From positions 4,759 to 68,758 of the IMG/VR virus record IMGVR_UViG_3300028786_000009: 64,000 nt of DNA; one strand, 5' to 3'. The translations under genes were made by a program, and so were the position numbers. Shown in pieces: positions 2,238 through 64,000 of the stretch (position 1 is its first letter; each line of letters starts with the position of its first letter). The notes beneath the pieces were generated by a model, which ran no database searches, was not told the DNA's origin, and saw nothing but the letters and a program-made list of their open reading frames with translations. This stretch comes from a virus.

Positions 2238-2896
2238 CCAGGGTGCTGATCGATGTGGGGGTAACGCCCACGCTGGCCAAGCTGTACGCCGCCCCGCTGG
2301 TCAAGGTGATGGCCCGCTTCGAGATCAACACGATGCCTCGCAGCGCGGCCTTCCTCGCCCAGATCCTGCACGAGTCGAGTCGCCTGGCGCGCATGGAGGA
2401 GAGCCTGTGGTACACGACGCCCGAGCGCATCGTGGCTACGTTCGACCGGCTCAAGTCGTTGCCCGCAGACGAGCTGAAAGCGCTGTGCCGCAACCCGCAC
2501 GGCCTGGCCAACATGGCGTACGGCTCGCGCAACGGCAACCGCGGCGTGATGAGCGGCGACGGCTGGCGCTACCGCGGCTCGGGCGCGATCCAGATCACCG
2601 GCCTGGCCGCCTTCGTCGCAGCCCAGAAGGCGAGCGGGCGGCCCTACGTCGACCACCCTGAGCTGGTGCGCGAGAACCCCGAGGACGCGATCATGAGCGC
2701 GGGCCTGTACTGGGACGCCCACGGCTGCAACAAGATCGTCGACGAAGACGACTTCGACGGCGTGTCCAAGCTGATCAACCTGGGCAACCGCAAGGCGTTG
2801 CCTTCGCCCAACGGGGCACAGGACCGGCGCGACCTGTACGACGAGGCACGCCTGGCGCTGGTCAACGCCGACCCGGCGCTGCTGAGCCCGCCTTGA
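2231..2896 (+). CDS. Endolysin, glycoside hydrolase family 19
   Basis: AAFLAQILHES, GDGWRYRGSGAIQITG and SAGLYW motifs. Confidence 0.9.
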   Translation: MLTRVLIDVGVTPTLAKLYAAPLVKVMARFEINTMPRSAAFLAQILHESSRLARMEESLWYTTPERIVATFDRLKSLPADELKALCRNPHGLANMAYGSRNGNRGVMSGDGWRYRGSGAIQITGLAAFVAAQKASGRPYVDHPELVRENPEDAIMSAGLYWDAHGCNKIVDEDDFDGVSKLINLGNRKALPSPNGAQDRRDLYDEARLALVNADPALLSPP

Positions 2897-2900
2897 GCCC

Positions 2901-3455
2901 TCACTTGCCCTTGCGCAGCACCTCGGTGAACTCGTGCGGCAGCGCGCAGTTGGGCGGTGCACCGGCGAACATCGGCGCGATCCAGAACGGCGTGTAGCCG
3001 GCCAGGCCGCAGCCCACCGCGGTGAGCCGAAAGCGCAGCTCCGGGTGCTCGCGCGCGTAGGCCAGGAAGCGCTCGACGTACACGCGAATCGCCGCCAGCT
3101 CGAGCGGGCGCAGCATCCGGTCCTTGGTCGGGATGGCGTAGGAATTGCCCTGGCGGCCCTCGCCCACGCCGTAGATCGCGCCGTGCTCGCACGCGGCGGC
3201 CAGCGCCGCACCCTTGCCGTGGCGCCCCGCCAGGTTCGAGCCGAAGACGAAGATCTCGCACCGCTCGGGTCGCGCGAAGTGGGAGTACGACTGCGCGGCG
3301 CGCACGCAGCGCTCGTTGTCCAGGCAGTAGCGAACGTTGTGCAGGATGGTGCCCTTGGCGAAGCCGCGCAGCTCGCTGATGTCGGTCTGGTGCACGCCGA
3401 TGTCGGCATCGTCGCGCTCGATGCCGCAGATGTGGCAGGTCCAGGTCAGGCTCAC
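2901..3455 (-). CDS. A1S_2505-like phage protein with an N-terminal Cys-rich extension
   Basis: IFVFGSNLAGRHGKGAA...SYAIPTK...VGCGLAG; GTG start overlaps the upstream stop. Confidence 0.75.
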   Translation of the reverse strand: MSLTWTCHICGIERDDADIGVHQTDISELRGFAKGTILHNVRYCLDNERCVRAAQSYSHFARPERCEIFVFGSNLAGRHGKGAALAAACEHGAIYGVGEGRQGNSYAIPTKDRMLRPLELAAIRVYVERFLAYAREHPELRFRLTAVGCGLAGYTPFWIAPMFAGAPPNCALPHEFTEVLRKGK

Positions 3456-5981: not shown

Positions 5982-6631
5982 GGCTTGCCCCAGATGGCCA
6001 GGTAGTCGCGCCCGTCGGACATCGCGCGCGAGTACAGCCAGCTCGGGTACTCGACGTAGTGCTCCAGCCGGCGAATCGGCTTGCGATGGTGCACCCCCTC
6101 GTGGCCGATGTGGATGTAGGTCTGGCAGCGCTTCAAGATCCAGCCCTCGTCGACGCCCACCTCGTTGCCCTTGTCCAGGGGCCGGCGCGGGTCGTAGCGG
6201 TGCGTCACCCAGCAGCCGATCACCACCTCGGGGCGGTGCTTTTCGATCGCCGCGCGCGCGTCCAGGGGCTCCACGTTCCGCCCGTAGGGCGCGATGCCCT
6301 GGCCCATCGCCTTGTACTGGAGCAGGTACTTCGGCACGAGCTGCTGGTAGCTGTCGGTGGCCGGGATGTGCAGCGCCTCGGCCAGCACGCCGTGGCCGGC
6401 GCCGATCTCGATCGCGCGGCGCGGCCCGATGATCTCGCGCAGCCGCTGCACCAGCTCGACGGTGGGAAAGCTGTACAGCCCGTTGCGCACGCCGAACAAG
6501 GCCCGCTCCTCGCGACGGGTGGCCGCCCAGAACGCGGCGCTCAGCACGCGCAGCCGCCCGTCCTCGGGATCCAGCGCCTCGTCCAGCGTTCGCAGGCCGG
6601 CGGTGTTGAGCAAGTAGGTGTCGTTCTTCAT
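5978..6631 (-). CDS. SAM-dependent methyltransferase-like protein
   Basis: AIEIGAGHG motif I; FPT.ELV and VIGCWVTH. Confidence 0.6.
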   Translation of the reverse strand: MKNDTYLLNTAGLRTLDEALDPEDGRLRVLSAAFWAATRREERALFGVRNGLYSFPTVELVQRLREIIGPRRAIEIGAGHGVLAEALHIPATDSYQQLVPKYLLQYKAMGQGIAPYGRNVEPLDARAAIEKHRPEVVIGCWVTHRYDPRRPLDKGNEVGVDEGWILKRCQTYIHIGHEGVHHRKPIRRLEHYVEYPSWLYSRAMSDGRDYLAIWGKP

Positions 6632-8202: not shown

Positions 8203-8502
8203 TTAGAACCAGGTTTCGACGACGTTGGGGTGATCGCCGGGCGAGCGGGGCATGCGCGTGAGGCCCGGCGGGATCAGCGAGCGCACATCTTCGAGCGTGC
8301 GCCCGAGCAGCATCACGACGGTGGGCAGGTCGTAGTGGAACGCGCGCGCGACGAAGAAGTCGGGCTGGTCGCGCGGGTGGTCGAACACCACCCAGTTGAC
8401 CAGCGGGTCGTCGTGGCGCGCGTCCCAGGGGCCGCCGCAGTTGGCCGGGTCGGCGCAGTGAATCATGTTCGCGGCTCGGCACGGCTCGCAGCGCTTGCTC
8501 AT
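8203..8502 (-). CDS. Hypothetical protein
   Basis: WVVFDHPRD.PD.FVAR...IPPGL.R..R...D.P.VVETW. Confidence 0.65.
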   Translation of the reverse strand: MSKRCEPCRAANMIHCADPANCGGPWDARHDDPLVNWVVFDHPRDQPDFFVARAFHYDLPTVVMLLGRTLEDVRSLIPPGLTRMPRSPGDHPNVVETWF

Positions 8503-49692: not shown

Positions 49693-50036
49693 CCCATCCG
49701 AACGGACAGATCGATCAAGCGACCTTGGCCAGCGAGATCGCCAACAAGCTCCAGGCCGAGCGCGAGCAGCAAGCGCCGATTCCGCCGGCGCGAATGCAGA
49801 TCAGCGAGACCCGCGTCAACGCGATGCTGATGACGATCCAGACCCAGCGCGACCACGCCCTGAACCAGTGGGTGATGGTGTCGGCCGACCTGGCGATGGT
49901 GCGCGAAGACCTGGAGATCAAGCGCAGGGAGTGCGCGCAGCTCGAGCAGCGGCTGCTGAGCCTGGCGCTGCTCGAGCACCCCGAAGCGCCGCCGCCCGAT
50001 GTCGGGATGACCGAGCCCGCGCCGGTCGAGCACTGA
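49689..50036 (+). CDS. Coiled-coil hypothetical protein
   Basis: QRD.ALN and heptads; coupled. Confidence 0.55.
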   Translation: MTHPNGQIDQATLASEIANKLQAEREQQAPIPPARMQISETRVNAMLMTIQTQRDHALNQWVMVSADLAMVREDLEIKRRECAQLEQRLLSLALLEHPEAPPPDVGMTEPAPVEH

Positions 50037-50050
50037 AAGGAGCGCAAGCC

Positions 50051-50422
50051 ATGTCGAGCAACAAGGCGTTTCGATTCGGGCCGCTGCTGCTGACCACGAC
50101 GATGACGACCAACCTGCTGAACCCGCCGGCGGCCAGCGGGGGCGTCAACGCCGGCAGCTCGCCTGCCTTCATCGCGCTGCGCCACCTGCGCGTGAGCAAC
50201 AAGTCGGGCGCGCAGGCGACGTTCTCGCTGTGGCTGGGTGCGAGCGGGGCGAACGCCAGCGGCACCGAGTTCGTGGGCGCCAACATCAAGGTCGAGCCCG
50301 GCGCCGCGTACGACTGGTACGGCGCCAACGCGCGCATCGAGTCGTCGCAGTTCCTGGTCGGTGGCGCCAGCGCGACCAATGCGCTCACGATCAGCGGCGA
50401 AGGCGAGATCGGGCTCGCGTGA
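50051..50422 (+). CDS. Hypothetical virion protein
   Basis: AAGGAG SD; beta-sandwich-like. Confidence 0.6.
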   Translation: MSSNKAFRFGPLLLTTTMTTNLLNPPAASGGVNAGSSPAFIALRHLRVSNKSGAQATFSLWLGASGANASGTEFVGANIKVEPGAAYDWYGANARIESSQFLVGGASATNALTISGEGEIGLA

Positions 50423-50817
50423 TGATCGCCGGCACCGCGTTTCGGATCGTCGATGCGCGCCACGCATGGGGGACGATCTACGCACGCACGGTGCGCACGC
50501 GCAGTGATCCCTGGACCTGCGAGGAGATCGCCGAGCTGTGCGAGCGCGGCGATGCGGTGTGCCTGTCGTGCCCCGACGGCGTGGTGGTGATCAAGCTCAT
50601 CGGCTCCGAGCGCGTGGGCCTCGAGGCCGAGGTGGTGCTGGGCGTGTCCAGCGGCAAGCCCGGCGCCTACGAGCGCACCGAGGACGAGCTGATGGCGGTG
50701 CTGCGCGACATGGGCGTGCGCAGCGTGTTCTTTCGCACCGATCGGGTCGGCTGGCTGCGCATGCTCGGCCCCGAGTGGCGCCAGCTTGGCAACGACCTGT
50801 ACGAAAGGAGCGTGTGA
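50422..50817 (+). CDS. Hypothetical protein (possible GNAT-like fold)
   Basis: R..G...V.F.T.R.GW; precedes the ejection genes. Confidence 0.5.
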   Translation: MIAGTAFRIVDARHAWGTIYARTVRTRSDPWTCEEIAELCERGDAVCLSCPDGVVVIKLIGSERVGLEAEVVLGVSSGKPGAYERTEDELMAVLRDMGVRSVFFRTDRVGWLRMLGPEWRQLGNDLYERSV

Positions 50818-51455
50818 TGGGCAAGAAGCAAGAGGTGCAGGAAACCGAACAGCAGCGCGCGATGGCGCAGGTCGGCAAGCAGCAGTTGCAGGACTTCAAG
50901 AACCGCTGGTTGCCCTTGCAGCGCCGACTGATGGGCAAGATTGCCGACAGCGGCGACCCGAACAGCTTCCAGGCGCGGCGCGCGACCACGATGGCCGGCG
51001 TCGACACCGGGGTGCAGTTCGGCCAGGCGCGCGCCAAGCTCGATGAGCAGGCGGCCGGTGCCGGCGGCGGGGTCCAGGGCAGCGCCTACAAGCTGGGCGT
51101 CATGGGCCTGGACACCGACGCGGCCACCTCGGGCGCGCTGTCGGGCGTGGCCGCCGAGCAAGGCGTGGCCGACCAGTACACGCACGGGCTGCAAGCGGTC
51201 ACCGCGATGGGGCGCGGCGAGAAGACGATGGCGATCTCCGGCATGGCGCAGCAAGCGCAGGCCAGCGGCCAGCAAGCCCAAGTCGACGCCCAGCACGCCC
51301 TCGAGGACCGCGCCGGCAACATGGCGCTGGCCAGCAAGGCGATCGGCACCGGCGCCTACCTGTACGGCACGCAGCCGGCGGCCGACCCGGGGCTCAACTC
51401 GACCGGCGACCCGCGCGTCAACCAGACCAATCTCAACGGCTCGCTGTACACCTAG
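50817..51455 (+). CDS. Internal virion/ejection protein
   Basis: A/Q/G-rich helical protein; AAGGAG SD. Confidence 0.6.
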   Translation: MGKKQEVQETEQQRAMAQVGKQQLQDFKNRWLPLQRRLMGKIADSGDPNSFQARRATTMAGVDTGVQFGQARAKLDEQAAGAGGGVQGSAYKLGVMGLDTDAATSGALSGVAAEQGVADQYTHGLQAVTAMGRGEKTMAISGMAQQAQASGQQAQVDAQHALEDRAGNMALASKAIGTGAYLYGTQPAADPGLNSTGDPRVNQTNLNGSLYT

Positions 51456-51464
51456 GAGATCGCC

Positions 51465-51845
51465 ATGGGCTATGCAACCGACACCTTCGCGCAGATGACG
51501 CGCGACCAGTGGCAGACGTACGTGAAGGACTACATCCCGTACGAGAACAAGCTGATCGACTACGCCACCGACCCGAACACGGTCAGCGACGCGATGAGCC
51601 AGGCCAGCGACACCGTCGCCAGCGCCTTCGATGCGCGCGCCGCGTCGTCGCAGCGCCACCTGCGCGGGCTCGGGCTCACGCTGGACGCCGACGAGCAGCA
51701 GGCGGCCACGCGCTCGACCGCGCTGGCGCGCAGCCTGGCCGACGTGAACGCGCAGAACACCGTGCGCGACGCCACCATGACGCGCCAGGCGAGCATCCTG
51801 GGCAATCCGGCCCCGAAGATCGGCGCAGGAGGGCTCGGATCATGA
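51465..51845 (+). CDS. Internal virion/ejection protein
   Basis: A.MTR.QW..Y...Y.PYE..L. Confidence 0.6.
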   Translation: MGYATDTFAQMTRDQWQTYVKDYIPYENKLIDYATDPNTVSDAMSQASDTVASAFDARAASSQRHLRGLGLTLDADEQQAATRSTALARSLADVNAQNTVRDATMTRQASILGNPAPKIGAGGLGS

Positions 51846-52156
51846 ACAGCGGAACCTACGGACTCGGAACCAGCGTGCGCGGCCCCGGCGGCGCGGGCGC
51901 GGGCCTGGCAGCGATGGGCCAGGACCAGGAGCGCCAGGCGATGGGGCTGCTCGGCGCCGCCGCCGGCCAGGAGCAGCAGCGCGAGCAGGCCAACGTCGAA
52001 GCCGAGCGGCAGCGCAAGGCCGGCAACGCCCAGCTCGGCAGCAGCGTCGGAGCAGCGGCCGGCATGTACGTCGGCATGCAGTACGGCGCGACCATGGGTC
52101 CATGGGGCGCGCTGATCGGTGGCGTCGTGGGCGGCCTGGCCGGCGGCGCGTTCTAA
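51842..52156 (+). CDS. Glycine-zipper ejection protein
   Basis: G..MGPWGALIGGVVGGLAG. Confidence 0.6.
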   Translation: MNSGTYGLGTSVRGPGGAGAGLAAMGQDQERQAMGLLGAAAGQEQQREQANVEAERQRKAGNAQLGSSVGAAAGMYVGMQYGATMGPWGALIGGVVGGLAGGAF

Positions 52157-52171
52157 CCCAGGAGACTCATC

Positions 52172-53791
52172 ATGCCCAGCGTTGGAGAGAGCGCCGCCCG
52201 CGGCCTGGAAAGCGGTGTCCGACTGGCGATGGACATCACCGAAGCGCAGCGCCGAGCGCAGCGCGAGACGCGCCTGGACGACCAGTCGCAGCAGGTGTTC
52301 GCCGCGCATATGGAGGATCGAGCCAACGCCCAAACGCGCCAGACCGACGCCGACGCGATGGCCGCCACCGACGCGCAGCTCGCCGATCTCAGGACTCAAG
52401 GCCCCGGCCTGGTCAACGCCACGCCCGAAGCGCAGGCGGCCTGGCGCCAGCAAATCGGCGCGGCCGAGGAAGGCCGGCGCAAGCTGCTGGTCAAGCGCGG
52501 CGCACCCGACACCAAGGCGCTGGCCGACAAGGCGCGCGCGTCGGTCGAAGCGGTCAAAAGCGGCCAGGTGAGCGACCCCGAGACGCTGGTGGCGGGCGTG
52601 GCCGGCGCCACCGGTCACCCGATCAGCTTCTTTCTGCCCGACAAGGATGGCGTGGCGCCCGCGCAGCGCTCGGCCATGAAGGTGCTGAGCGGCCAGGAGC
52701 AGCAGAACATGCCGATGATCCTGGAGGGCCTGAACGAGTCGATCGGCCCGCAGCTCCAGCGCAACCTGGGCAAGGAAACGCAGCACGGCGGCAAGGCGGT
52801 GTTCAAGGAGATCGTCGGGCTGACCCCCGATCCGAACTCACCGAGCGACGACCCGCGCTACATCCCGGTGATCCGCACCTACATCGACCGCGGCAAGGAC
52901 TTTCGCGGCCCCAAGCGCAAGGTGGGCAACGGCGTCGAGGCCGATGGCCACTACGACGCACCGATGACGCAAGGCGGCAGCGCCGACTCGAAGGCCGACC
53001 CGCTGGTGCAGTCGCTGAGCTTGAAGCGCGGCATGGGCTACCTGGACAACCAGCTCAAGCTGGCCGAGGGGCTGGCCGCACCCGAGGCCCAGAAGTACCT
53101 CGCCGGCTACCTGCAACAAGGCGGCAGCGATGGCACAGACTTCGCCGCGGCGCTGGCCGAACACGGGCTGCGGGCGCCCACCAACACGACCAAGAACACC
53201 TCGATCGGCTCGGGCGGGCTGCTGCGCGAGACCTACGACGCGCAGGGCAACAAGATCGGCGAGAGCGTGATCCAGCCCCCGCCCAAGGAAAGCGCGCAAG
53301 GCGGCTTGCAGCAGGACATCAGCACCATCCAGCGCCAGGTCGACGCGAAGCTGATCACCCAGGCCGAGGCCGACCGGCTCAAGAGATCCGCGCTCGAAAA
53401 GGACTCGACGCGCGCGCCCAAGGGCGGCGGCGCGGGCGGCGGGGGCGAGGGGGGCGGCGGCCTGAGCAAGGCCGATGAGCGCGCGGTCAAGGCCCAGCAG
53501 GCGCAGATCAAGTCGCGCCTGGACCGGCTGAAAGAGAACAAGGCCGACGCGCTCAAGAAGTACGAGATCGACATCAAGGGCAAGCCCAAGCGCGTGCAGC
53601 AAGAGCGTGAGGCCGAGTACCGCAGCGCGGTGAGCACCTTCGACGCCCAGATCCAGAACCTCGAGGAGCAGGACTCGAAGCTGGGCGACCAGCTCACCGG
53701 CGTGGTCGAGCGCACCCCGGGCCTGGCCGGCGCCAGGCCGGCACCCGCACCGGCCAACAGCGGCAAGGGCTACTCATCACTGTGGAAGTAA
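52172..53791 (+). CDS. Large internal virion/ejection protein
   Basis: 539 aa; AGGAG SD; directly precedes the giant gene. Confidence 0.65.
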   Translation: MPSVGESAARGLESGVRLAMDITEAQRRAQRETRLDDQSQQVFAAHMEDRANAQTRQTDADAMAATDAQLADLRTQGPGLVNATPEAQAAWRQQIGAAEEGRRKLLVKRGAPDTKALADKARASVEAVKSGQVSDPETLVAGVAGATGHPISFFLPDKDGVAPAQRSAMKVLSGQEQQNMPMILEGLNESIGPQLQRNLGKETQHGGKAVFKEIVGLTPDPNSPSDDPRYIPVIRTYIDRGKDFRGPKRKVGNGVEADGHYDAPMTQGGSADSKADPLVQSLSLKRGMGYLDNQLKLAEGLAAPEAQKYLAGYLQQGGSDGTDFAAALAEHGLRAPTNTTKNTSIGSGGLLRETYDAQGNKIGESVIQPPPKESAQGGLQQDISTIQRQVDAKLITQAEADRLKRSALEKDSTRAPKGGGAGGGGEGGGGLSKADERAVKAQQAQIKSRLDRLKENKADALKKYEIDIKGKPKRVQQEREAEYRSAVSTFDAQIQNLEEQDSKLGDQLTGVVERTPGLAGARPAPAPANSGKGYSSLWK

Positions 53792-53794
53792 GCC

Positions 53795-56700
53795 ATGGCT
53801 AAGAAATGGGCCGAAGTCACCGCGCTGCCGGCGTACCAGGCGCTCACGCCTGACGACCAGGACGCGGCCAAACAGCAATACTTCGACGAAGTCATCCGCC
53901 CGCAGGTGCCGCGCGCCAGGCAGGATGTCGCCTACGAGGAGTTCAAGGCTGACACCGGCTACGGCGAGCGCGACAGCGCCGAGCTGACGCACCCCGGCGG
54001 CCTGGGCTCGGGGCGGCCCGCCTCAAACGATGAGCGCATCGCCGCGCGCGGGCTGAGCAGCGTCGCACCGCCGCCGCCCAGCACCGGCGTGCTCGCGGGC
54101 ATCCGCGAGAACGAGGCCGCGCGCAATCAGCGCTTCGGCCTGGTCGAGCCGCCCGTGCCGCCAGCGCCGGCCCCCGCGCCGCGCGAGGAGCCCAAGCCGT
54201 TCAAGGACAAGTTCGAAGCCGTCAACGACGCGGTCGACCGCATCGAGATGGGCGCCGACCGCGACAAGGTGTTCGAGGCGTTCACCAAGATCGGCATCAA
54301 GCCCAGCGAGATCGAGGCGCGCGGGGTTGCGCTGGGCGGCGCTGCGTTCAAGCGCTTCGACGCCGCCCCGGGCGTGAAGGCTCCCGTCGGCCCGATGCAG
54401 GCCGATGGCGAGATCAAGGCCACGCCGACCCCCAATCGCAACATCTTCGCCGTCGTCAACGACTCGATGATCAACGTGGCCAACGCCGCGGTGGGCACCG
54501 TCAAGACGCTGAGCGATCTCACCGGCCCCGACAGCCAGAACTCCAAGGACCTGGAGCGCTTCATCAAGCAGGGCCAGCGCGCGCAGTCGGAGTGGCAGAA
54601 GAACAAGCGCTCCGAGCTGAGCGACTCGCTGGCCGACAGCACCGGCCAGGTCGACAAGGCCGGGCGCTACCTGATGCACGCGATCGTCGACGACCCGCTG
54701 GCGACGATGTCCGAGGCCGCCGGCAACATCGGCGCGTTCGGCGCGCTGGGCCGCGCCACCGCGGCGCTCCAGGCCGGCACCGCCACCAAGGCGAGCATGG
54801 CGATTGCCGGCATGGCCGGCGCTGGCGAGGTGCGCGGCAACATCTGGGACGCGGTCAACGGCAAGTCGGACAAGGAGCTGATGCAGTCCAGCCCCGAGTA
54901 CAAGAAGCTGCGCGAGGGCGGCATGGACGAGGGCCGGGCCAAGCGCGAGATCGGCGCCAACTTGCTGCGCAACCTGCCCGAGCTGGTGGCCACCGGCCTG
55001 GTGGCGTCGCTGGGCGGCAAGTACGGCCTGGAAGCGCTCGCCACGGGTGCGCGGGTGAGCACCGGGCGCATCAGCGGCGCGCTGATCGGCCTGATCGACG
55101 AGGGCACGCAGGGCGCGCTCGAGCAGGTGGCCACCAACATCGGCGTGAAGCGCGCTGAGCCGGGCCAGAAGATCCTCGACGACGTGCTGCTGAACGCAGT
55201 CAGCGAGGGCCTGGTGGGTTCGCTTGGCGGCGCGATGACGGGCGGCAACGCCCACGAGGTGGCGGCGCTCAAGTACGAAGACGCGCGCAAGAAGGGCCTG
55301 AACGTCGACCCGCCGCTGTCGAGCGACCCGCCCGATGTGCAGCGCGCCAAGACGGTGGGCATCTTCGATTCGCTGGCCGCGCAGTACGGCATCCCGAAGG
55401 CCGCCGTCGACCAGGTGAAGAAGGCCACCGAAGGCGTGCCGTTGGAGCAGCTTGGCGGCGTGCTGGCGAAGTTCGCGAGCGCGCTGCAACAGCGCAACCT
55501 GACGGGCACGCCGCTGGACGATCACGCGCTGGCCGTGCTCACCGCGGGCGCGGTGGCGCCGCCGCCGGCTGAGGGCGACGCCATGGTCTGGCGCTCCAAG
55601 GACAGCGAGCAGCCGGTGACGCTGGGCAAGGGCACGGCGGTGACCGCCCCCGACGGGCGCAAGTACCAACCGGTGATCGGCTCCAACGGCGTGCCCAGCT
55701 TCGTGCCGGCCGACGAGCTGCACCCGCCAGGTGCGAAAACGCAAACCGCCGCGGCCCCTGCTGCGGCACCGGCTACGGCTGCTGACACTTCGACGCGCGC
55801 GGCGGCCACGAGCGCACCGGCCCCTGCACCCAGTGTTTCGAGGCAAAACGCAACGCCCGCCGATGAGGACTTTTCGGGCCTGTCCGAGACAAGCGCCGAG
55901 CCTGCAACCGCTGCTGACACTTCGACGCGCGCGCCGGCCGTGCCCGATGCCGGCGTGGACCCGGCGACCGGCACCCCGCTGAGCAACGCCGAGGCGGTGG
56001 CCGCCGCGCCGGCGCCCGAGATCAAGACCACGGTCGACGAGGCCGCGCACGCTGCCGCCAGCTCGCCGCTGAACGACAAGAGCGAGCCCACGCGCGCGCA
56101 GATCGAGGCCGGCAACGCGCCGCTGGGCCACCCGAAGGTGGGCGGCATGAACGTCAGCGTCGAAACCGCCGAGGGCGGCATCCGGCGCTCCAAGCCCGGC
56201 GCGCTGGTCCAGTGGGCGACGAAGATGGTGGGCGCCAGCTACGGCTACATCCGCGGCACCAAGGGCATGGACGGCGAGCAGATCGACGCGTTCGTGAAGC
56301 CGGGCACCGACGAGAAGTGGGACGGCACGGTGTTCGTCATCGACCAGCTCGACCCGGACAGCGGAAAGCCCGACGAGCACAAGGTCATGCTCGGCTACGC
56401 CAACGTGCAGGAGGCCCAAAAGACCTATCTTGCGAACTACCAGCCCGGCTGGAAGGGCATGGGCGAGGTGCGCGCCGTGCCGCTGGCCAGCTTCAAGAAG
56501 TGGCTGGCCGAGGGCGACACCTCGCAGCCGTTCGCGACCCGCAAGGCCGCACCGAAGGGGAAGCCAAGTGAACCATCACAGCCTGACGTATCAGGCACTG
56601 CCGCGCCTGCTGCGGGTGCCGCTGAGCCTGGGAGTCATCAGCCAGGCGGAAGCCGCGGAGATCTGGGACGTGATGCTGCAACAGCACCCGCCGAACAACC

Positions 56701-59700
56701 GGGTGGTGCTGCCGCAGCACCTGAAACCGGCGGCCGACCGGCTGGAGTTCTACGCGATGGAGGTGACGGCAAGGCTCCAGTAGGCCCGCGCGTCATCGCC
56801 CGCGCCGGCACCAGCACCAAGCTGGCCACCGACATCGAGCTGCGCGCCAACGCCGACGGCACGCTGACACCGATGCACGAAGGCCGCGAGCTGCTCGACT
56901 ACGACAGCGGCGAGCCGATCTCGCTCGCGGCCGGCACCAGCGACAAGGATGCGATCCAGGCGATCCGCGACGCGGGCGCGTTCGGGCGCAAGACGAAGAT
57001 CTTCCCGAGCGACAAAACCGCCGCGCCGGCACCAGAACCGGCCGCTGCGGCGAGCGCCGCGCCGGCCCCTGCTCCGAGTGCTACCGAGCCTGCCGCGGCG
57101 CCTGTAGCCTCGCCTATGGCGCCCGAGCCCGAGCCCGAGCCGGCACCGGCACCGGCACCGGCACCGGCACCGGCACCGACGCCCGAGCCTGCGCCAGCAC
57201 CTGCGAGCGCGCCGGCACCGATCGCTGAAACGGCCCCGAAAGAGCCCGATTCGGGGCAAAAAGAGCCCGAAACGACAGCGGTTACCCCGCGTACCCCTGT
57301 TACCCCTGAACCCCCGTTCACCCCTCCTGCGCCGACGCCCGACCTGATCCAGGCGCGCCGCGCCACCCGCGAGCGCGAGCGCGAGGTGTACCGCGACCTG
57401 ATCGCGCAGCCCGAGATGGTCGGAAAGTCGCTGGACGACCTGATCGCCGCCGTCACCGCGCGCACCGAGGGGCCGAACCTGCCCTGGGCGCGGCTGCGCA
57501 TCGAGCGCCTGGCGCGTGCGCTGCACAAGGCCATCGCCAAGAACGCCGTCGAGCTGGCCCGCCAAAAGCACCGCAGCCCCGAGGTGCGCGCCACCGCGCT
57601 GGGCGCTGCCGTCACGGCCTGGAACCCGAGCGCCGACATTCCGGTGGACCAGCACGGCGCGTTCATCGCCGGCTTCGACCACGCGCTGGCCGGCAAGACG
57701 CGCAGCACCCTCACCGGCGATCACCCGATCGACCGCATGTCGGGCTACAAGGCCGCGCAGACCTGGCTCGAAACCGAGGAGGGCGCCGCCTACTTCGAGG
57801 GCCGACCGGTCAACAAGCTCCAGAACACCGGGGTCGACCTGCGCCGCTGGTACGACAAGCTCAAGGCCCAGATGCTGGCCGGCGAGTCGGATGTCGACAA
57901 GGCGTGGAAGCAAATCGAGCGCGCCACCGCGCGCGCCGACCTGTTCGCCCCGCTGCTGCCCGAGGGCGTGAGCCCGGGCTACCGCACCTACATCGAGGGC
58001 GGGCTGCGGCGCTTGGTCTCGCCGTTCAAGACCTGGCTGCTGCACAGCGACGTGAGCCGCTACACCGGCGAGTACGAGTGGGAGAAGAACGCCAAGGCGC
58101 GCGAGAAGTCGCAGCTCGACTCGATCATCGCCGGGCGCCGCCAGCCGAGTGAGCTGTCGAGCGAGGACCGCGAGCGCTTCGCGTCAGAACCGTCCTACAG
58201 GGCGCAGTGGCTGCGCGACAAGGCGGACGCCTACATCACCGAGGTGCGCAAGATCACCGAGCTGCTGGAAAACGCCAGCTCGGTCGACGAGGCCGCGCGC
58301 CGCTGGGCCGAGCGCTACGTCACCAACGACACCGACAAGGGCTACGCCGAGCCCAACGCGGCCGGCCAGAAGCTGGCTGGCGGGGCGATGTGGCTGGGCG
58401 GCTGGCGCGAGATCACCGACATGCGCCGGTTCAGCGCCTGGGTGAAGAACCTGGTGGCCAACGAGGCGACGATCGTGCTGCCCACGCGGGCCACGCCGCT
58501 GACGCCGCCCAAGCTGGACCACGTCACGCGCGACGGCCCCGACCTGCGCGCGGGCAAGGATGTGACGCCGGCCGAGGTCAAGGCCAAGTTCAGCTTCGCC
58601 GACATCGGTTTCGGCAACTGGGTGGGCGCCAAGCAGGACCAGGACCACCTGAACTACGCGCACGACGCGCTCGCCGACCTGGCCAAGCACTTCGGCGCCC
58701 CGCCCGAGGGGGTGGGCTTCGGCGGTGCGCTGCACCTGACGATCGGCGCGCTCGGCGCGGGCAGCAAGGCCGCGGCGCACTTCCAGAAGATGCAGCCGAG
58801 CCCGAACGGCCCGGTGCCGGTGATCAACCTCACGAACACGAAGGGCGACGGCACCGTCTACCACGAGTGGATTCACGCCCTGGATCACTTCCTGGGCGGC
58901 GACTGGGCCAAGCTGGTGCGACCCGAGATGGTCCGCTACCTCCAGCGCGGCGTGCTCACGGTCAAGAACGTCGAAGACGAGGCGCGCAAGTTCCTGTTCG
59001 GCGGCTGGTACTGGCAGGGCAACAAGAAGCTCGACAAGGTCGAGGCGGCGGTGCGCGGCGTGCGCCAGGGCAGCGGCATGAGGCGCGCCAGCGCGTTCAA
59101 GCAGAACAGCGACCAGCTCGGCGCCGACTACTGGGGAAACGAGCACGAAATGATCGCGCGCGCCGGCGAGGCGTGGGCTACCGACACCCTCGGGCACACC
59201 AGCAACTACCTGGTCAACACCAACTGGAGCGCCGAGGGCAAGGTCACGCAGGCCGCGGGCTTTCGCGGCACCCCGTACCCGACCGGCGAGGAGCGGCGCC
59301 TGTTCAACCTGCTGTACACGGCGCTGGCCAAGTCGGTCAAGTGGGAGAACGGCCGCCCGACGGTTGATCACCTGGACTTCCGCAAGGCGCTGCCCGAGGA
59401 GTTCAAGGCCGGCGTGCAGCGCCAGCAGGAGCTGAACGACATCGACGAGATGCGCTCGTTCTACGAGGCCGAGCAGGCCAAGCGCGCTGATGCCGCCGCC
59501 GAAGCCGCCGAGCTGGCCGCCCAGAAGCAGCGCGAGGAGGAGGCCGAGATGGACCGCCTGGCGCGCGAGAAGCTGGGCAAGGAGCCCGAGCGCGAGCCCG
59601 GCCCGGCGACGGTCGACGCCCCGCCGGTAGGCGAGCACACCGGGCCGCTGTCAGACGACGAGCTGTCGGCGCTGTTCGACGAGGCGGCGGCCGAGCTGCG

Positions 59701-62700
59701 CGAGAAGGCATCCGAGGAGCCCGACACGCCCCCGCCGGGCGAGCCCCCCGCTGCACCGGCCCCCGCACCGGCCCCCGCACCTGCGCCGGCCCCCGAGGAC
59801 GAGGCCGCCGCCGAGCTGCGCTACCAGCGCCAGCAGGCCGCCAAGGAAGCGCCCAGCGGCGCCGACATCGCGTTCCTGCGCGACCTGATCGCGCGCGGCC
59901 AGATGGTGCTGCTGTCGGGCAACGCGTGGGCGCGCTTTCACGGCATCCCGACGATCCATTCGATCCAGCAGCTCGAAAGCAAGGGCGAGGGCAAGGTGCG
60001 CCATGTCGGCTTCGGCATGTTCGAGTTCCACGGGCGCGACCTGAAAGCGACCTGGGACGCGGGCGGCGCGATGCAAAAGGCCCCCGACGGCACCTCCTAC
60101 TCACTGCTTCACGTGGAACGTGGCACGTTCGAGTACCCGAAGGCGCGCATTCTCGACATGCTGAGCAAGATGGGCACGCTGCCCACGCCGCCCGCCGCAC
60201 CGCCCGCCGCACCGCCCGCCGCACCAGCGCCCAGCCGCGCCGAGGCGAGCGCCGCCGAGCTGATCGCCAAGGCCGCGCAGCTCGGGGTCAAGGGCGCCGA
60301 CGAGGCGCTGACCGGCCTGGCCAAGCTGTTCGGCGGCCCGGGGCGGCTCAACTCGTTCCCCGGCGGCTTCGACGAAGAGACCTACAAGCAGGCCAAGCCG
60401 CACTTCCAGGCCGCGCTCCAGTCGTTCCAGGAGGCCGGCAAGTCGCTGAAAGACCTGTTCAAGATGCTGATCACGCAGTTCGGCGACGGCATCAAGGACT
60501 ACGCGCTGCGCTTCGCCAAGGACGAGGCGCTGGGCGCGCAGCTCGGCGCCAAGGTCAGCGCCAGCTCGCAGGTAGCCGACCAGGTAGCCGCGCAGCTCGA
60601 ACGCGGCGAGGCGTTCACCTGGCGCGAGCTGTTCGGCTGGGCCGACGCCGCGTACGGCGGCACTCAGGCCGCCGGCACCTACAGCGTCAAGGACGCCTAC
60701 GACGCGATGGAAGCGGGCATGAACCGCTACCTCCTGGCGCATCCGCAGGCGTTCAACCCGGCGGTGCCGTTCGAGGATGCGCTGCGCGCGGTGGCCGCGC
60801 TCGAGCAGCTCACCGCCAAGCTGCCCACGCAGACCAAGCGCACCGAGGAACAGAACCTGTACCAGCAGTTCAGCACCGTGCCGGCCTTCGCCTACGCGGC
60901 CAACTGGGCGGCCAACCTGAGCCAGACCGACACCGTCGGCGAGTTCTCGGCCGGCATCGGCGGGCTGGCGGTGTTCGCCAAGAACGCGGGCGCCAAGCTG
61001 ATCTTGAACGAGCTGTCGAGCCGGCGCGCGGCGGTGCTGCAAGAGGTCTTCCCCGACACCACGGTGCACCACGAGAACGCCGAGCAGATCCACAACATCC
61101 TGCCCGACCACCTGGTGCCCACCGCGGTGGTGATCAACCCGCCGTTCAGCTCCAGCGCCGAAACCGGGCGCAAGAAGACCGCCGTCGGCGCCGAGCACCT
61201 GGAGCAAGCGCTGCTGCGCCTGGCCGACGGCGGGCGCCTGGTGGCGATCGTGGGCGAGGGCATGGCGCGCGACAAGCCGGCTTTTGCCGCCTGGTGGAAG
61301 AAGATCGACGCCAAGTACCACGTGCGCGCGGCGGTGCCGGTGTCGGGTGCGGGCTACGCCAAGTACGGCACGACGTTCGACAACGTGCTGATCGTGATCG
61401 ACAAGGTCAACCCCCCGGACAAGGCGGTGCCCCCTGTCGTGAGCCCCGCGGCCGACTACACTGAGCTGGTTCGGCTGCTAGCAGGAGTGCGAAATGATCG
61501 ACCAGCAGTTTCAGCCGGGGTCAGCGACGTTGATGCGGCTCAACCAGACCCCGACCGCGGAGCACGTGGCGAGCCTCCTCGAGGAGGCGAAGGTGCCGAC
61601 GCACGGGCGCCTGGTGATAGCGGTGCTCCTGGAGTGGGCACTGGAGCACCTGGCGGCCGAACGGGTGTGGGCACAGGCGGTCGAGCAGGCGGCGGTTCTC
61701 GGGGAGGAAAGGGACCCGGAGGGACTGTCGGAGAACCTGGAAACGCAGCGGATGCTGGAAGCAACGACGCTGGACGAAGCGGGCCGAGCGATCCTGTCGT
61801 CGGTGGCGGACTTCGTGCTGCCGGGGACGCAACCGGCGTAACCACGGGCGTCACGATCGGCGCGGCCACCAACGCCGCCGCCGCGCTGACCGATTCCGTC
61901 TTCGAGGGCTACACGCCGCAGCGCTTGCAGGTGCCCGGCGCCAAGCCGCACCCCGGCGCGCTGGTGCAGTCCGCGGCGATGGCCTCGGTGCTGCCGCCCG
62001 CGCCCACCTACACGCCGAACCTGCCGCGCGAGACGATCGACAAGGGGCTGCTGTCGATCGCCCAGATCGAGGCGATCGTCTACGCCGGCCAGGCGCACGG
62101 CCAGATGCTCGACACCACCGTCGACGACAAGACGGCGACCAAGCACGGCATCAAGGCCGGCACGCCCTACCGGCGCGGCTTCTTCATCGGTGACGGCACC
62201 GGCGTGGGCAAGGGCCGCGAGGTCAGCGGCATCCTGCTCGACAACCTGCGCCAGGGCCGCACCAAGCACGTCTGGGTGTCGGAGAAACAGGGTCTGCTCA
62301 ACGACGCCAAGCGCGACTTCAAGGGCGTGGGCGGCGAAGAAGCGCTGCTGTTCAACCAGAACAAGACCAAGGCCGAGGACAAGATCGACGCCAAGGGCGG
62401 GATTGTCTTCACCACCTACTCGACGCTGCGCTCGGGCGCGCAGAACGTGACCGCGGGCGGCTTCAAGAAGGGTGCCCCGGTGCGCGTGGGCCGCCCGTTC
62501 GGCCAGGTCTTCGAAACCGGCGAGGGCCACGACTACGACACCGGCGAGCTGGTCAAGGTCGACGCGGGGCGCAACCAGGTGCACGTGAAGTCGAAGCAGA
62601 CCGGCAAGATCTCGATTCACCCGTTCGGCCAGATCCTGGCGATCGGCGGCAACGAGCACTGGCTGGACGCCGTCGACGACCCGAAGAAGGCGCCGAAGTC

Positions 62701-64000
62701 GCGCCTGGACCAGCTCGTCGAGTGGCTGGGCAAGGACTTCGACGGCGTGATCGCCTTCGACGAGGCGCACAACGCGGGCAACGCCGAGGCGATCAGGGGC
62801 GATCGTGGCATGAGCGATCCCTCGGCGCAGGCGCTGGCGGTGGTCGAGCTGCAAGCGCGCTTGCCCAACGCGCGCGTGGTCTACGTCAGCGCCACCGGCG
62901 CCACCGAGGTCAGCAACCTCGCCTTCGCCACCCGGCTCGGGCTGTGGGGCGCGGGCACCGCGTTCCCGACGGTGCAGAACTTCATCGCCGAGATGACGGC
63001 CGGCGGCCTGGCGACGATGGAGCTGGTGGCGCGCGACATGAAACAGGCGGGCTCCTACCTGGCGCGCAGCCTGTCGTTCGACGGCGTGAGCTACTCGCGC
63101 ATCGAGCACGAGCTGACGCCGCTGCAACGCCAGATCTACGACCGCCTGGCCGAAGCGTGGCAGGTGACGCTCCAGAATTTCATGGCCGCCCTCGAGGCGA
63201 CCGGGGTGATCAACGAGCAGGGCACGACGAAGAACTCCAAGGCGCTGGCCGCCGCCAAGTCGGCGTACTGGGGCGCGCAGCAGCGCTTTTTCAACCAGGT
63301 GATCACCAGCATGCAGATGCCCTCGGTGATCGAGCAGATCGAGCGCGACGTGGCCGCCGGCCATGCGATCGTGCTGCAACTGGTCAACACCAACGAGGCG
63401 CAGCAAGAGCGCGCGGTGGCCAAGAAGAAGGAGGAGGGCGAAACCGATCTCGAAGACCTGGACCTGACGCCGCGCGATCAGCTCATCCAGATGGTGCAGA
63501 AGTCGTTCCCCACGCAGCAGTTCGTCGAGGAGGTCAACCCCGAGACGGGCGCCACGCGGATGGTGCCCGCGCTCAACTCCAAGGGCGAGCCGATCGAGAA
63601 CAAGGCCGCGGTCGCGATGCGCGACAAGCTGCTCAAGGACCTGGCCGACATCAAGGTGCCCGACGGCCCGCTGGAGCTGATCCTGAATCACTTCGGCCCC
63701 GAGATGGTGGGCGAGGTGACCGGGCGCAAGCAGCGCGTGGTGCGCCTGCCCGACGCCGATGGCAACCTCAAGGCGCAGATCCAGGCGCGCGGCGCGAGCG
63801 CGGCGCGAGCCGACGCCGACGCCTTCATGGCCGACAAGAAGCGCATCCTGGTGTTCTCCGACGCCGGCGGGACCGGGTTCAGCTTCCAGGCCGACCTGAC
63901 CAAGCCGAACCAGCGCAAGCGCCAGCACTACCTGCTGCAACCGGGCTGGCGCGCCAACAAGGCGGTGCAGGGCCTGGGCCGCTCGCACCGCACCAACCAG
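53795..64000 (+). CDS. Giant polyvalent (DarB-like) virion protein: InPase-like + LPD1 + N6-adenine MTase + strawberry-notch SF2 helicase; 3'-truncated
   Basis: Starts MAKKWAEV and is still in the same frame at the window end (AVQGLGRSHRTNQ). Motifs: YGYIRGTKG.DG..ID/DEHKVMLG (~56100-56500), HEWIHALD (~58860), QQFST/SAG.G/NPPF (~60860-61150), GDGTGVGKGRE (~62190), FDEAH (~62755). Confidence 0.88.
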   Translation, partial: MAKKWAEVTALPAYQALTPDDQDAAKQQYFDEVIRPQVPRARQDVAYEEFKADTGYGERDSAELTHPGGLGSGRPASNDERIAARGLSSVAPPPPSTGVLAGIRENEAARNQRFGLVEPPVPPAPAPAPREEPKPFKDKFEAVNDAVDRIEMGADRDKVFEAFTKIGIKPSEIEARGVALGGAAFKRFDAAPGVKAPVGPMQADGEIKATPTPNRNIFAVVNDSMINVANAAVGTVKTLSDLTGPDSQNSKDLERFIKQGQRAQSEWQKNKRSELSDSLADSTGQVDKAGRYLMHAIVDDPLATMSEAAGNIGAFGALGRATAALQAGTATKASMAIAGMAGAGEVRGNIWDAVNGKSDKELMQSSPEYKKLREGGMDEGRAKREIGANLLRNLPELVATGLVASLGGKYGLEALATGARVSTGRISGALIGLIDEGTQGALEQVATNIGVKRAEPGQKILDDVLLNAVSEGLVGSLGGAMTGGNAHEVAALKYEDARKKGLNVDPPLSSDPPDVQRAKTVGIFDSLAAQYGIPKAAVDQVKKATEGVPLEQLGGVLAKFASALQQRNLTGTPLDDHALAVLTAGAVAPPPAEGDAMVWRSKDSEQPVTLGKGTAVTAPDGRKYQPVIGSNGVPSFVPADELHPPGAKTQTAAAPAAAPATAADTSTRAAATSAPAPAPSVSRQNATPADEDFSGLSETSAEPATAADTSTRAPAVPDAGVDPATGTPLSNAEAVAAAPAPEIKTTVDEAAHAAASSPLNDKSEPTRAQIEAGNAPLGHPKVGGMNVSVETAEGGIRRSKPGALVQWATKMVGASYGYIRGTKGMDGEQIDAFVKPGTDEKWDGTVFVIDQLDPDSGKPDEHKVMLGYANVQEAQKTYLANYQPGWKGMGEVRAVPLASFKKWLAEGDTSQPFATRKAAPKGKPSEPSQPDVSGTAAPAAGAAEPGSHQPGGSRGDLGRDAATAPAEQPGGAAAAPETGGRPAGVLRDGGDGKAPVGPRVIARAGTSTKLATDIELRANADGTLTPMHEGRELLDYDSGEPISLAAGTSDKDAIQAIRDAGAFGRKTKIFPSDKTAAPAPEPAAAASAAPAPAPSATEPAAAPVASPMAPEPEPEPAPAPAPAPAPAPTPEPAPAPASAPAPIAETAPKEPDSGQKEPETTAVTPRTPVTPEPPFTPPAPTPDLIQARRATREREREVYRDLIAQPEMVGKSLDDLIAAVTARTEGPNLPWARLRIERLARALHKAIAKNAVELARQKHRSPEVRATALGAAVTAWNPSADIPVDQHGAFIAGFDHALAGKTRSTLTGDHPIDRMSGYKAAQTWLETEEGAAYFEGRPVNKLQNTGVDLRRWYDKLKAQMLAGESDVDKAWKQIERATARADLFAPLLPEGVSPGYRTYIEGGLRRLVSPFKTWLLHSDVSRYTGEYEWEKNAKAREKSQLDSIIAGRRQPSELSSEDRERFASEPSYRAQWLRDKADAYITEVRKITELLENASSVDEAARRWAERYVTNDTDKGYAEPNAAGQKLAGGAMWLGGWREITDMRRFSAWVKNLVANEATIVLPTRATPLTPPKLDHVTRDGPDLRAGKDVTPAEVKAKFSFADIGFGNWVGAKQDQDHLNYAHDALADLAKHFGAPPEGVGFGGALHLTIGALGAGSKAAAHFQKMQPSPNGPVPVINLTNTKGDGTVYHEWIHALDHFLGGDWAKLVRPEMVRYLQRGVLTVKNVEDEARKFLFGGWYWQGNKKLDKVEAAVRGVRQGSGMRRASAFKQNSDQLGADYWGNEHEMIARAGEAWATDTLGHTSNYLVNTNWSAEGKVTQAAGFRGTPYPTGEERRLFNLLYTALAKSVKWENGRPTVDHLDFRKALPEEFKAGVQRQQELNDIDEMRSFYEAEQAKRADAAAEAAELAAQKQREEEAEMDRLAREKLGKEPEREPGPATVDAPPVGEHTGPLSDDELSALFDEAAAELREKASEEPDTPPPGEPPAAPAPAPAPAPAPAPEDEAAAELRYQRQQAAKEAPSGADIAFLRDLIARGQMVLLSGNAWARFHGIPTIHSIQQLESKGEGKVRHVGFGMFEFHGRDLKATWDAGGAMQKAPDGTSYSLLHVERGTFEYPKARILDMLSKMGTLPTPPAAPPAAPPAAPAPSRAEASAAELIAKAAQLGVKGADEALTGLAKLFGGPGRLNSFPGGFDEETYKQAKPHFQAALQSFQEAGKSLKDLFKMLITQFGDGIKDYALRFAKDEALGAQLGAKVSASSQVADQVAAQLERGEAFTWRELFGWADAAYGGTQAAGTYSVKDAYDAMEAGMNRYLLAHPQAFNPAVPFEDALRAVAALEQLTAKLPTQTKRTEEQNLYQQFSTVPAFAYAANWAANLSQTDTVGEFSAGIGGLAVFAKNAGAKLILNELSSRRAAVLQEVFPDTTVHHENAEQIHNILPDHLVPTAVVINPPFSSSAETGRKKTAVGAEHLEQALLRLADGGRLVAIVGEGMARDKPAFAAWWKKIDAKYHVRAAVPVSGAGYAKYGTTFDNVLIVIDKVNPPDKAVPPVVSPAADYTELVRLLAGVRNDRPAVSAGVSDVDAAQPDPDRGARGEPPRGGEGADARAPGDSGAPGVGTGAPGGRTGVGTGGRAGGGSRGGKGPGGTVGEPGNAADAGSNDAGRSGPSDPVVGGGLRAAGDATGVTTGVTIGAATNAAAALTDSVFEGYTPQRLQVPGAKPHPGALVQSAAMASVLPPAPTYTPNLPRETIDKGLLSIAQIEAIVYAGQAHGQMLDTTVDDKTATKHGIKAGTPYRRGFFIGDGTGVGKGREVSGILLDNLRQGRTKHVWVSEKQGLLNDAKRDFKGVGGEEALLFNQNKTKAEDKIDAKGGIVFTTYSTLRSGAQNVTAGGFKKGAPVRVGRPFGQVFETGEGHDYDTGELVKVDAGRNQVHVKSKQTGKISIHPFGQILAIGGNEHWLDAVDDPKKAPKSRLDQLVEWLGKDFDGVIAFDEAHNAGNAEAIRGDRGMSDPSAQALAVVELQARLPNARVVYVSATGATEVSNLAFATRLGLWGAGTAFPTVQNFIAEMTAGGLATMELVARDMKQAGSYLARSLSFDGVSYSRIEHELTPLQRQIYDRLAEAWQVTLQNFMAALEATGVINEQGTTKNSKALAAAKSAYWGAQQRFFNQVITSMQMPSVIEQIERDVAAGHAIVLQLVNTNEAQQERAVAKKKEEGETDLEDLDLTPRDQLIQMVQKSFPTQQFVEEVNPETGATRMVPALNSKGEPIENKAAVAMRDKLLKDLADIKVPDGPLELILNHFGPEMVGEVTGRKQRVVRLPDADGNLKAQIQARGASAARADADAFMADKKRILVFSDAGGTGFSFQADLTKPNQRKRQHYLLQPGWRANKAVQGLGRSHRTNQ
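56568..56783 (+). CDS. Nested +1-frame gene inside the giant gene (71 aa)
   Basis: AAGGGG SD-like sequence then GTG; GC3-rich codons in this frame while the giant frame becomes A/T3-rich. Confidence 0.55.
   Translation: MNHHSLTYQALPRLLRVPLSLGVISQAEAAEIWDVMLQQHPPNNRVVLPQHLKPAADRLEFYAMEVTARLQ
61494..61841 (+). CDS. Nested +1-frame gene inside the giant gene (115 aa, acidic, helical)
   Basis: AGGAG SD 6 nt before ATG; in-frame TAG just upstream; codon bias switches to this frame. Confidence 0.65.
   Translation: MIDQQFQPGSATLMRLNQTPTAEHVASLLEEAKVPTHGRLVIAVLLEWALEHLAAERVWAQAVEQAAVLGEERDPEGLSENLETQRMLEATTLDEAGRAILSSVADFVLPGTQPA

Follow-up and report, generated by a model that had tools for sequence, protein, structure and literature searches.

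We analysed a window of 64,000 nucleotides (nt) from the IMG/VR virus record IMGVR_UViG_3300028786_000009 (bases 4759 to 68758 of the 68,758-bp record; CheckV completeness 99; 68% guanine plus cytosine (GC)). On its plus strand lies a giant open reading frame (ORF), found in the ORF list, that starts at ATG 53795 and runs past the end of the window at position 64000; it comprises 3402 codons and is open at its 3′ end. Pfam analysis of the translation revealed an InPase domain (residues 768 to 904), an LPD1 domain (1774 to 1848) and AAA_34 plus Helicase_C_4 (≈ 2793 to 3401), a Strawberry-notch-type helicase; a ResIII match and a methyltransferase-like region were also present. With several unrelated domains, the signature InPase and LPD domains among them, in one polypeptide, the giant gene (53795 to 64000) fits the class of phage-type polyvalent protein genes. 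In the text of Iyer et al. 2017 (PMC5512222), InPase and DdrB-ParB are phage-type domains that are probably packaged and injected. The InPase domain is encoded at 56096 to 56506 on the plus strand (Pfam PF18823, E = 7.4e-38). A second ORF of 71 amino acids (aa), here called F1, begins 62 nt downstream of it and occupies positions 56568 to 56783, also on the plus strand and shifted by + 1 relative to the giant frame. From its codon signature, family, nesting and predicted fold, we argue that F1 is very probably a real gene, embedded in an inter-domain spacer of a giant polyvalent (virion/ejection-module) gene.

The 71 codons of F1 are bounded by GTG (56568 to 56570) and TAG (56781 to 56783). 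A first-pass annotation of this DNA had pointed out a purine-rich Shine–Dalgarno (SD)-like motif in front of the GTG of this 71-aa + 1 ORF, and we verified it: GAAGGGG lies at 56554 to 56560 (plus strand), separated from the start codon by a 7-nt spacer. Its duplex with a generic anti-SD sequence has a calculated energy of − 7.9 kcal/mol, within the lowest 6.3% of positions within ± 2 kb. The + 1 frame, described at first as open from at least 56430, is open stop-to-stop from 56298, TTG 56430 being its first start codon. At 68% GC, spurious long ORFs abound (67 ORFs with a length of 60 aa or more overlap the interval from 50000 to 64000), so an open frame by itself carries no weight.

Read in the giant frame, the same DNA (56567 to 56785, plus strand) encodes a Gly/Ala/Pro-rich spacer of ≈ 72 residues (giant residues 925 to 997) in non-native codons and contains no stop. 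The GC content at the first, second and third codon positions (GC1/2/3) of the giant frame was 0.88/0.75/0.38 over the overlap, compared with 0.64/0.38/0.96 just upstream and 0.69/0.63/0.87 downstream. In + 1, the same nucleotides gave ≈ 0.75/0.38/0.88, which is the normal coding pattern of this genome. The GC3 of the giant frame was 0.90 to 1.00 nearly throughout and dropped to 0.36 to 0.46 in exactly two stretches, 56495 to 56790 and 61370 to 61820; in both, the peak shifted to the nucleotides that serve as third codon positions in + 1. The contrast drawn in the first-pass annotation between a GC3-rich nested frame and atypical host codons is thus borne out (host GC3 of 0.38 against ≈ 0.95, with native codons in + 1), and so is the second occurrence of the signature that it had placed at 61494. 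The pattern recurred in 11 related high-GC loci, where the host GC3 was 0.35 to 0.51 in the overlap. Downstream and in the same frame, the host GC3 was 0.78 to 0.97 in nine of these 11; it was 0.72 in locus L010 and 0.66 in L007, whose host frame terminates 113 nt past the nested gene.

A HMMER search of 1.84 billion representative proteins yielded 17 matches to F1 at E ≤ 1e-3. All were 68 to 88 aa long and aligned over nearly their full length; with the low-GC members described below, the family spans ≈ 61 to 88 aa. Searches with the single 71-aa sequence gave no match by tblastn against plasmids, by tblastn against phages (E ≤ 0.01) or in a scan of viral contigs, and blastn of positions 56000 to 57400 against plasmids returned just short matches to the InPase part or to a Pro/Ala repeat. 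Relatives emerged only from the all-protein HMMER search and from alignment-based scans, for which the pattern was built from five sequences, the 18-sequence alignment being too diverse. The first scans gave 16 loci: five in viral contigs, two in species-representative genomes (a Sulfuritalea and a Proteobacteria metagenome-assembled genome (MAG)) and nine in metagenome contigs. Two of the viral-contig loci, L005 and L006, were false matches inside a tape-measure gene and were discarded. L011 and L013 are duplicates of L003 and L008, respectively, and L015 is almost the same as L007. In the last pair, the host frame of L007 (the Sulfuritalea MAG; 6201 to 6314) stops at the distance given above, and that of L015 is open to the contig end; the contrast may reflect an indel error in a long-read MAG or a real truncation.

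The family extends to three cultured phages. Vibrio phage VvAW1, reached through a weak tblastn match (E = 0.8), contains a 61-codon + 1 ORF preceded by GGAG and starting with ATG inside its annotated DarB-like giant coding sequence (CDS). The profile built from high-GC members matched this ORF with 33.7 bits and an E-value of 3.4e-10 when run against the 194 peptides of a six-frame translation of the locus. Vibrio phage vB_ValP_FGH has a 63-codon + 1 ORF inside a giant hypothetical CDS. In both phages the F1 gene is unannotated. In Thalassomonas phage BA3 (GenBank EU124666) it is already annotated as BA3_0004, nested in BA3_0002 on the same strand and in + 1. BA3_0004 is listed as a 110-aa ‘hypothetical protein’; the family match is limited to its last 64 residues, and the first 46 look like an out-of-frame reading. 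The giant gene of BA3 carries a second annotated nested CDS in + 1, BA3_0003 (L020, 5036 to 5380, minus strand), which is Leu/Arg/Lys-rich and looks non-coding; no relatives of it were seen among the other loci. A scan with these three low-GC sequences added 11 viral contigs of 41 to 51% GC, two of which are BA3 and VvAW1 themselves.

Of the 27 scan loci, 25 were true. Together with the window and the three GenBank phages they make 29 loci with 24 distinct small proteins; the 17 database relatives stand outside this count unless they coincide with those loci. At each of the 29 loci a far longer open frame encloses the small ORF, which is in + 1 relative to it; the enclosing frame ranges from 229 codons on a short contig to > 2860. 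The third frame, tabulated for 25 of the 29, had an open stretch of 7 to 47 codons in 22 loci, and one of 72 to 244 codons only in L009, L010, L014 and L017. The carriers span 41% to 71% GC, the three cultured phages among them. The motifs VIS.xEA... and LPxxLxxAxxRLxLW and the terminal H or Q were kept between 68%-GC and 41%-GC phages, and translating that stretch in the host frame gives unrelated sequences of low complexity. The position is common to the hosts: the nested gene lies 490 to 925 residues from the host N-terminus, after a weakly conserved N-terminal region. The first-pass annotation had left room for a nested frame that is not conserved in relatives; what we found is a conserved family, nested at each locus.

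To this family we could fit a fold. AlphaFold2, run with the 29-sequence alignment, predicted three helices with a mean predicted local distance difference test score (pLDDT) of 83.9 and a predicted template modelling score (pTM) of 0.68. Codon signature, family and fold together confirm that the ORF at 56568 to 56783 is more than chance.

How the host frame behaves across the nested gene bears on whether the giant gene is a single unit. No stop codon occurred in the host frame across the nested gene in any of the 29 loci. When the codons of the small protein were resampled synonymously, the host frame was open with a probability of 0.48 to 0.79 per locus (0.69 in the window); the product over 12 high-GC loci was 0.0066. 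The remaining frame was open in just 0.00 to 0.07 of the shuffles. The first codon position of the host falls on the G/C-rich third position of the nested gene, which makes stops, all T-initial, rare in the host frame; hence such nesting is + 1. In 12 of 12 high-GC loci the coding signature resumes on both sides in the same frame. The next conserved module of the giant protein (ELRxNxDGTLTP...LDxxSGxPI...PAGxxD...; a motif of the window, L002, L004, L010 and L012) is encoded at 56837 to 57013 on the plus strand. Past 56500, the giant frame first offers one of the start codons ATG, GTG and TTG at 56873 (an ATG), 36 nt into this module. Since there are no stops, the flanking coding lies in the same frame and the next module begins before any start codon, the overlap is most simply read as a Gly/Ala/Pro-rich spacer of the giant protein.

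A rival explanation keeps the small gene and dissolves the giant one into separate upstream and downstream genes, apparently fused by a chance stop-free frame in GC-rich DNA. The per-locus probabilities just given are what it needs, and giant genes do seem to be cut differently: the host frame ends 113 to 1500 nt past the small gene in L002, L012, L004, L007 and L017. Against this, upstream coding reaches and crosses the small gene without meeting a stop in 29 of 29 loci, and these include the phages of 41 to 51% GC, where open alternative frames are unexpected. Moreover, the flanking signatures stay in one frame in the high-GC loci despite small genes that vary from 67 to 76 codons, and in the window the downstream module has begun before the first codon at which a separate gene could start. 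We consider separate genes quite improbable.

We next compared the starts of the nested genes. In the alignment, all 29 loci have a start codon at one shared position, two to five codons before an SLT(W/Y)Q motif or, in the low-GC group, at an MxEW motif. Among 13 loci tabulated, ATG was used in seven, GTG in three and TTG in three; all 11 low-GC contigs have ATG. Pairing of the upstream 18 nt with the generic anti-SD sequence had a median percentile of 0.085 in 15 loci (Fisher combined p = 2e-5, an optimistic value because the loci are phylogenetically related). These observations bear on the alternative offered by the first-pass annotation, a programmed + 1 ribosomal frameshift after the InPase domain that would give a shorter isoform ending with the three-helix segment at TAG 56783. 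There is space for such a shift in most loci, the + 1 frame being open for 20 to 113 codons upstream of the start: beyond the open stretch of the window, it measures 93 to 113 codons in L008, L009 and L012, 36 in VvAW1 and ≈ 46 in BA3. In L007 and L015, however, a TGA closes the + 1 frame three codons before the TTG start, which gives a slip out of the giant frame hardly any space. A longer product with the F1 C-terminus was not found, none of the 17 database relatives exceeding 88 aa, and no shared slippery motif was seen by eye in the 45 nt upstream of 13 loci, for which no formal motif search was made. The TGA of L007 and L015, the conserved start with its SD-like pairing and the lack of longer relatives thus favour internal initiation; a frameshift isoform appears very improbable.

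Selection was compared between the two frames. Over the same columns of 12 nucleotide rows, amino acid identity was 0.467 in the small frame versus 0.375 in the host frame, and the synonymous share of differing codons was 0.21 versus 0.12. In six VvAW1-like contigs, host synonymous variation affected 6 of 47 conserved codons in the overlap versus 146 of 323 upstream (Fisher p = 1.2e-5). Such a dip is what a second reading frame should leave. It also argues against a fossil frame, that is, an ancestral in-frame domain of the giant protein that was displaced by two compensating indels and left a + 1 relic but no small protein. Native codons in + 1 over a non-native host frame are the trace that a recent double frameshift would leave. 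A relic would decay, yet phages ranging from 68% down to 41% GC share the peptide, its start, stop and length being kept, and no in-frame version within a long protein occurred among the matches in the 1.84 billion representatives. A fossil is highly improbable. A chance ORF, compositional artefact or assembly error, for which the 68% GC and the abundance of long ORFs might speak, has a negligible probability given that the family occurs in independent assemblies and three sequenced cultured phages; the recurrence of the arrangement in both likewise rules out sequencing error.

The embedded gene is therefore the reading that we prefer, and under it we infer that both products, giant and small, are actually made. 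A late mRNA would be read in two ways. Ribosomes starting at ATG 53795 would run through and translate the stretch as a flexible spacer of ≈ 72 residues that joins the InPase domain to the next module. Other ribosomes would initiate internally at GTG 56568 after GAAGGGG, in + 1, and terminate at TAG 56781 to 56783, which would release a free 71-aa three-helix protein. The small protein would shape the sequence of the stretch, and the giant protein would need just an open frame there, which the + 1 geometry would supply through its scarcity of T-initial stops.

Several points weigh against this interpretation. A look-up of sequencing runs that contain the stretch listed one DNA run, which may be the source sample, and no RNA run. 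An open host frame is individually likely by chance at each locus, at the probabilities given above. SD pairing was weak in L004 (percentile 0.70) and L002 (0.35), and the relatedness of the loci makes combined p-values optimistic in general. In the comparison of the two frames over 12 nucleotide rows, nucleotide divergence at the three codon positions was nearly flat (0.387/0.376/0.409 in the high-GC loci), which indicates saturation, so that this test has little power. Mosaic recent ancestry could lie partly behind the host synonymous dip, and a second such dip follows 300 nt downstream, though it coincides with another nested ORF (F3, below). Seven cultured phages that share the N-terminal region of the giant protein (Itty13, Skulduggery, 1.183.O, 1.232.O, PTXU04, 1.211.A and D274; stretches of 10.3 to 11.0 kb) contained no F1 member; the gene is thus not obligatory for such giant proteins. 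Finally, a function of F1 is unsupported: no family was matched in Pfam or in PHROGs, and no solved structure was matched above noise, the best Foldseek E-value against the PDB being 2.4 and the best Z-score in a wide VIA-align search 4.0.

Structural comparison with viral models gave as best BFVD match an unnamed viral protein of 110 aa (template modelling (TM) score 0.72, 30% identity, E = 0.037). We suspect from the equal length that this is BA3_0004 itself, an identity that is unconfirmed. The ESM Atlas returned just unnamed clusters of 64 to 71 aa with scores of 0.80 to 0.81, below its trust level. By inspection of the 29-member alignment, the F1 protein appears Leu/Trp-rich and neutral to acidic, and has neither a signal peptide nor a conserved Cys. 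An outer-membrane spanin (o-spanin) was ruled out as there is no lipobox. The F1 gene is locked inside the giant gene across a wide diversity of phages and is necessarily co-transcribed with it. On these grounds we tentatively suggest, as a possibility that we rate below even odds, that F1 may encode a partner, supplied in cis, that helps the giant ejected protein inside the producing cell, for example in holding, assembly or packaging. An unrelated role, in which a small phage factor uses the spacer as a genomic shelter, fits the data equally well.

F1 is not the only nested ORF. The second low-GC3 stretch of the giant gene holds F2, a + 1 ORF of 115 aa at 61494 to 61841 (plus strand), located after the methyltransferase-like region and ahead of the helicase. 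Its codon pattern is native, AGGAG precedes its ATG by 7 nt, and the giant frame over it reads as a Gly/Arg-rich spacer. Three homologues of 112 to 117 aa are 45 to 53% identical and share the M-x-D start and the PGTQPA end; no match was obtained in viral contigs, in the F1 loci or in phages at E ≤ 10. Judged by codon pattern and homologues, F2 looks like a real gene. F3 is a + 1 ORF of 109 aa (MNLQNW...) in the VvAW1-like giant gene, ≈ 300 nt after F1 (5502 to 5831 in L030; ≈ 6466 to 6795 in L018, which is VvAW1). It has 20 homologues of 87 to 124 aa and coincides with the second dip in host synonymous variation. A resemblance of F3 to TnpV-like proteins was unsupported, Pfam giving no match at E ≤ 1. 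F4, a + 1 ORF of ≈ 130 aa (MYQVP...), was found at 8494 to 8886 in L033, 7846 to 8241 in L035, 7414 to 7809 in L038, 9970 to 10377 in L003 and 11872 to 12180 in L014. Its hosts are Pseudomonas phage Skulduggery, Vibrio phages 1.232.O and D274, and L003 and L014, the last two of which also carry F1. Pairwise identity among F4 members is 32 to 38% over 45 to 68% GC, and in the GC-rich genomes the host GC3 dips to 0.39 to 0.43 over F4. Up to two nested families occur per giant gene. The presence of multiple unrelated nested + 1 families (F1 to F4) in such giant genes is well supported.

The first-pass annotation had read the two nested ORFs of the window as a repeated design of an effector domain with an embedded partner gene, and had raised the question whether homologues of F1 are always nested after InPase. 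The nesting in + 1 is repeated, in four unrelated families, but a fixed pairing with one effector does not hold. Among 14 hosts scanned with Pfam, InPase lay directly upstream of F1 in six (the window, L002, L003, L004, L012 and L014) and was absent from L007, L008, L009, L016, L017 and three low-GC hosts, so that a reading of InPase plus partner fails. In L008 and L009, ddrB-ParB follows right after the nested gene, with Zeta_toxin (L008) or RelA_SpoT (L009) further on, which illustrates the variability of the effector modules behind the nested gene. No recognised Pfam domain was present in the hosts of L007, L016 and L017, and the three low-GC hosts had methyltransferase (MTase) and helicase domains only. 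Domains of host relatives include ddrB-ParB, Zeta_toxin, RelA_SpoT, MTase and SNF2.

A broader proposal is that giant polyvalent genes systematically carry hidden + 1 small genes in their spacers, each small protein being the dedicated partner of its giant. We regard this as rather unlikely, the partner role being its speculative part. If true, the small proteins might hold the modules in an inactive or unfolded state for packaging, or bring the giant protein into the capsid, and one stretch of DNA would encode both cargo and handling factors.

To our knowledge, out-of-frame nested phage genes are classic but just a handful of cases are known. Genes of phiX174 are among them. In Bacillus subtilis, comS is a small out-of-frame ORF inside srfA, a giant multi-modular gene with which it shares a transcript. 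It is a single cellular regulatory case and lies inside an enzymatic module of a nonribosomal peptide synthetase, whereas F1 is a family spread over many phages and lies in linkers; and, unlike in srfA, several unrelated nested genes can share one phage giant gene. In phage lambda, Rz1 lies in the + 1 frame of Rz. Like F1, it is a small phage gene that sits wholly inside a longer gene of the same strand, in + 1, with its own ribosome-binding site, and both products come from one late transcript, as we propose for F1 and the giant gene. There are three differences. Rz1 is an outer-membrane lipoprotein that binds Rz, and the F1 protein has no signal peptide or lipobox; the host of F1 is, unlike Rz, a multi-domain virion/ejection protein of > 3400 aa; and F1 overlaps a non-conserved spacer of its host, whereas Rz1 overlaps a functional domain. 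Spanin genes of this kind have been termed ‘embedded’ (PMC5295617, PMC6139136).

The main text of PMC5512222, supplements aside, does not describe nested genes inside polyvalent genes: the words ‘overlapping’, ‘frameshift’ and ‘linker’ do not occur in it, and its lone passage with ‘reading frame’ concerns neighbouring ORFs. More generally, we found no account of genes nested within polyvalent or DarB-like genes of phages in the literature covered, outside of which lay supplements and many subscription journals. Within the same coverage, no discussion of BA3_0004 was found in print, the texts of PMC3558961 and PMC9011153 also having been checked. Out-of-frame embedding is thus already known, and the new part is the nested families in polyvalent giant genes. 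Because these are conserved, multiple and experimentally accessible, the finding is of fairly high interest.

Standard gene callers forbid out-of-frame nested genes, which makes such genes invisible to them, and annotations of phages and metagenomes would systematically miss a class of small proteins. F1 occupies a spacer in what is the largest gene of its genome, and the same class of giant genes conceals no fewer than three other unrelated small genes in this way. Some ‘low-complexity linkers’ of polyvalent proteins would partly be the shadow of another gene, which matters for domain analysis and structure prediction. As a search rule we suggest looking within long ORFs for a local flip of GC3 or codon signature to + 1 that has an SD motif with start codon at one edge and a stop codon at the other. 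Cultured phage–host pairs allow direct tests of small-protein function and of the production, packaging and ejection of the giant protein.

Upstream of the giant gene, the window contains genes for a portal, a major head and an internal virion protein; in VvAW1 the giant gene comes after a ‘DNA ejection’ gene. In phage Itty13 (L032, NC_070969), the tblastn match to the N-terminal region of the VvAW1 giant protein lies on the strand opposite to the long CDSs PQC19_gp03 and gp02; the annotation of this GC-rich phage may have the giant gene on the wrong strand. Pro/Ala-rich linkers of the giant protein in the window (55670 to 55900, 57020 to 57300 and 59645 to 59750) have a GC3 of ≈ 0.66 to 0.88 without a coding-like pattern in another frame; not every linker, therefore, hides a gene. 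The giant gene passes the 3′ end of the record, which is rated 99% complete and linear; with a circularly permuted genome, the C-terminus of the giant protein may sit at the start of the record.

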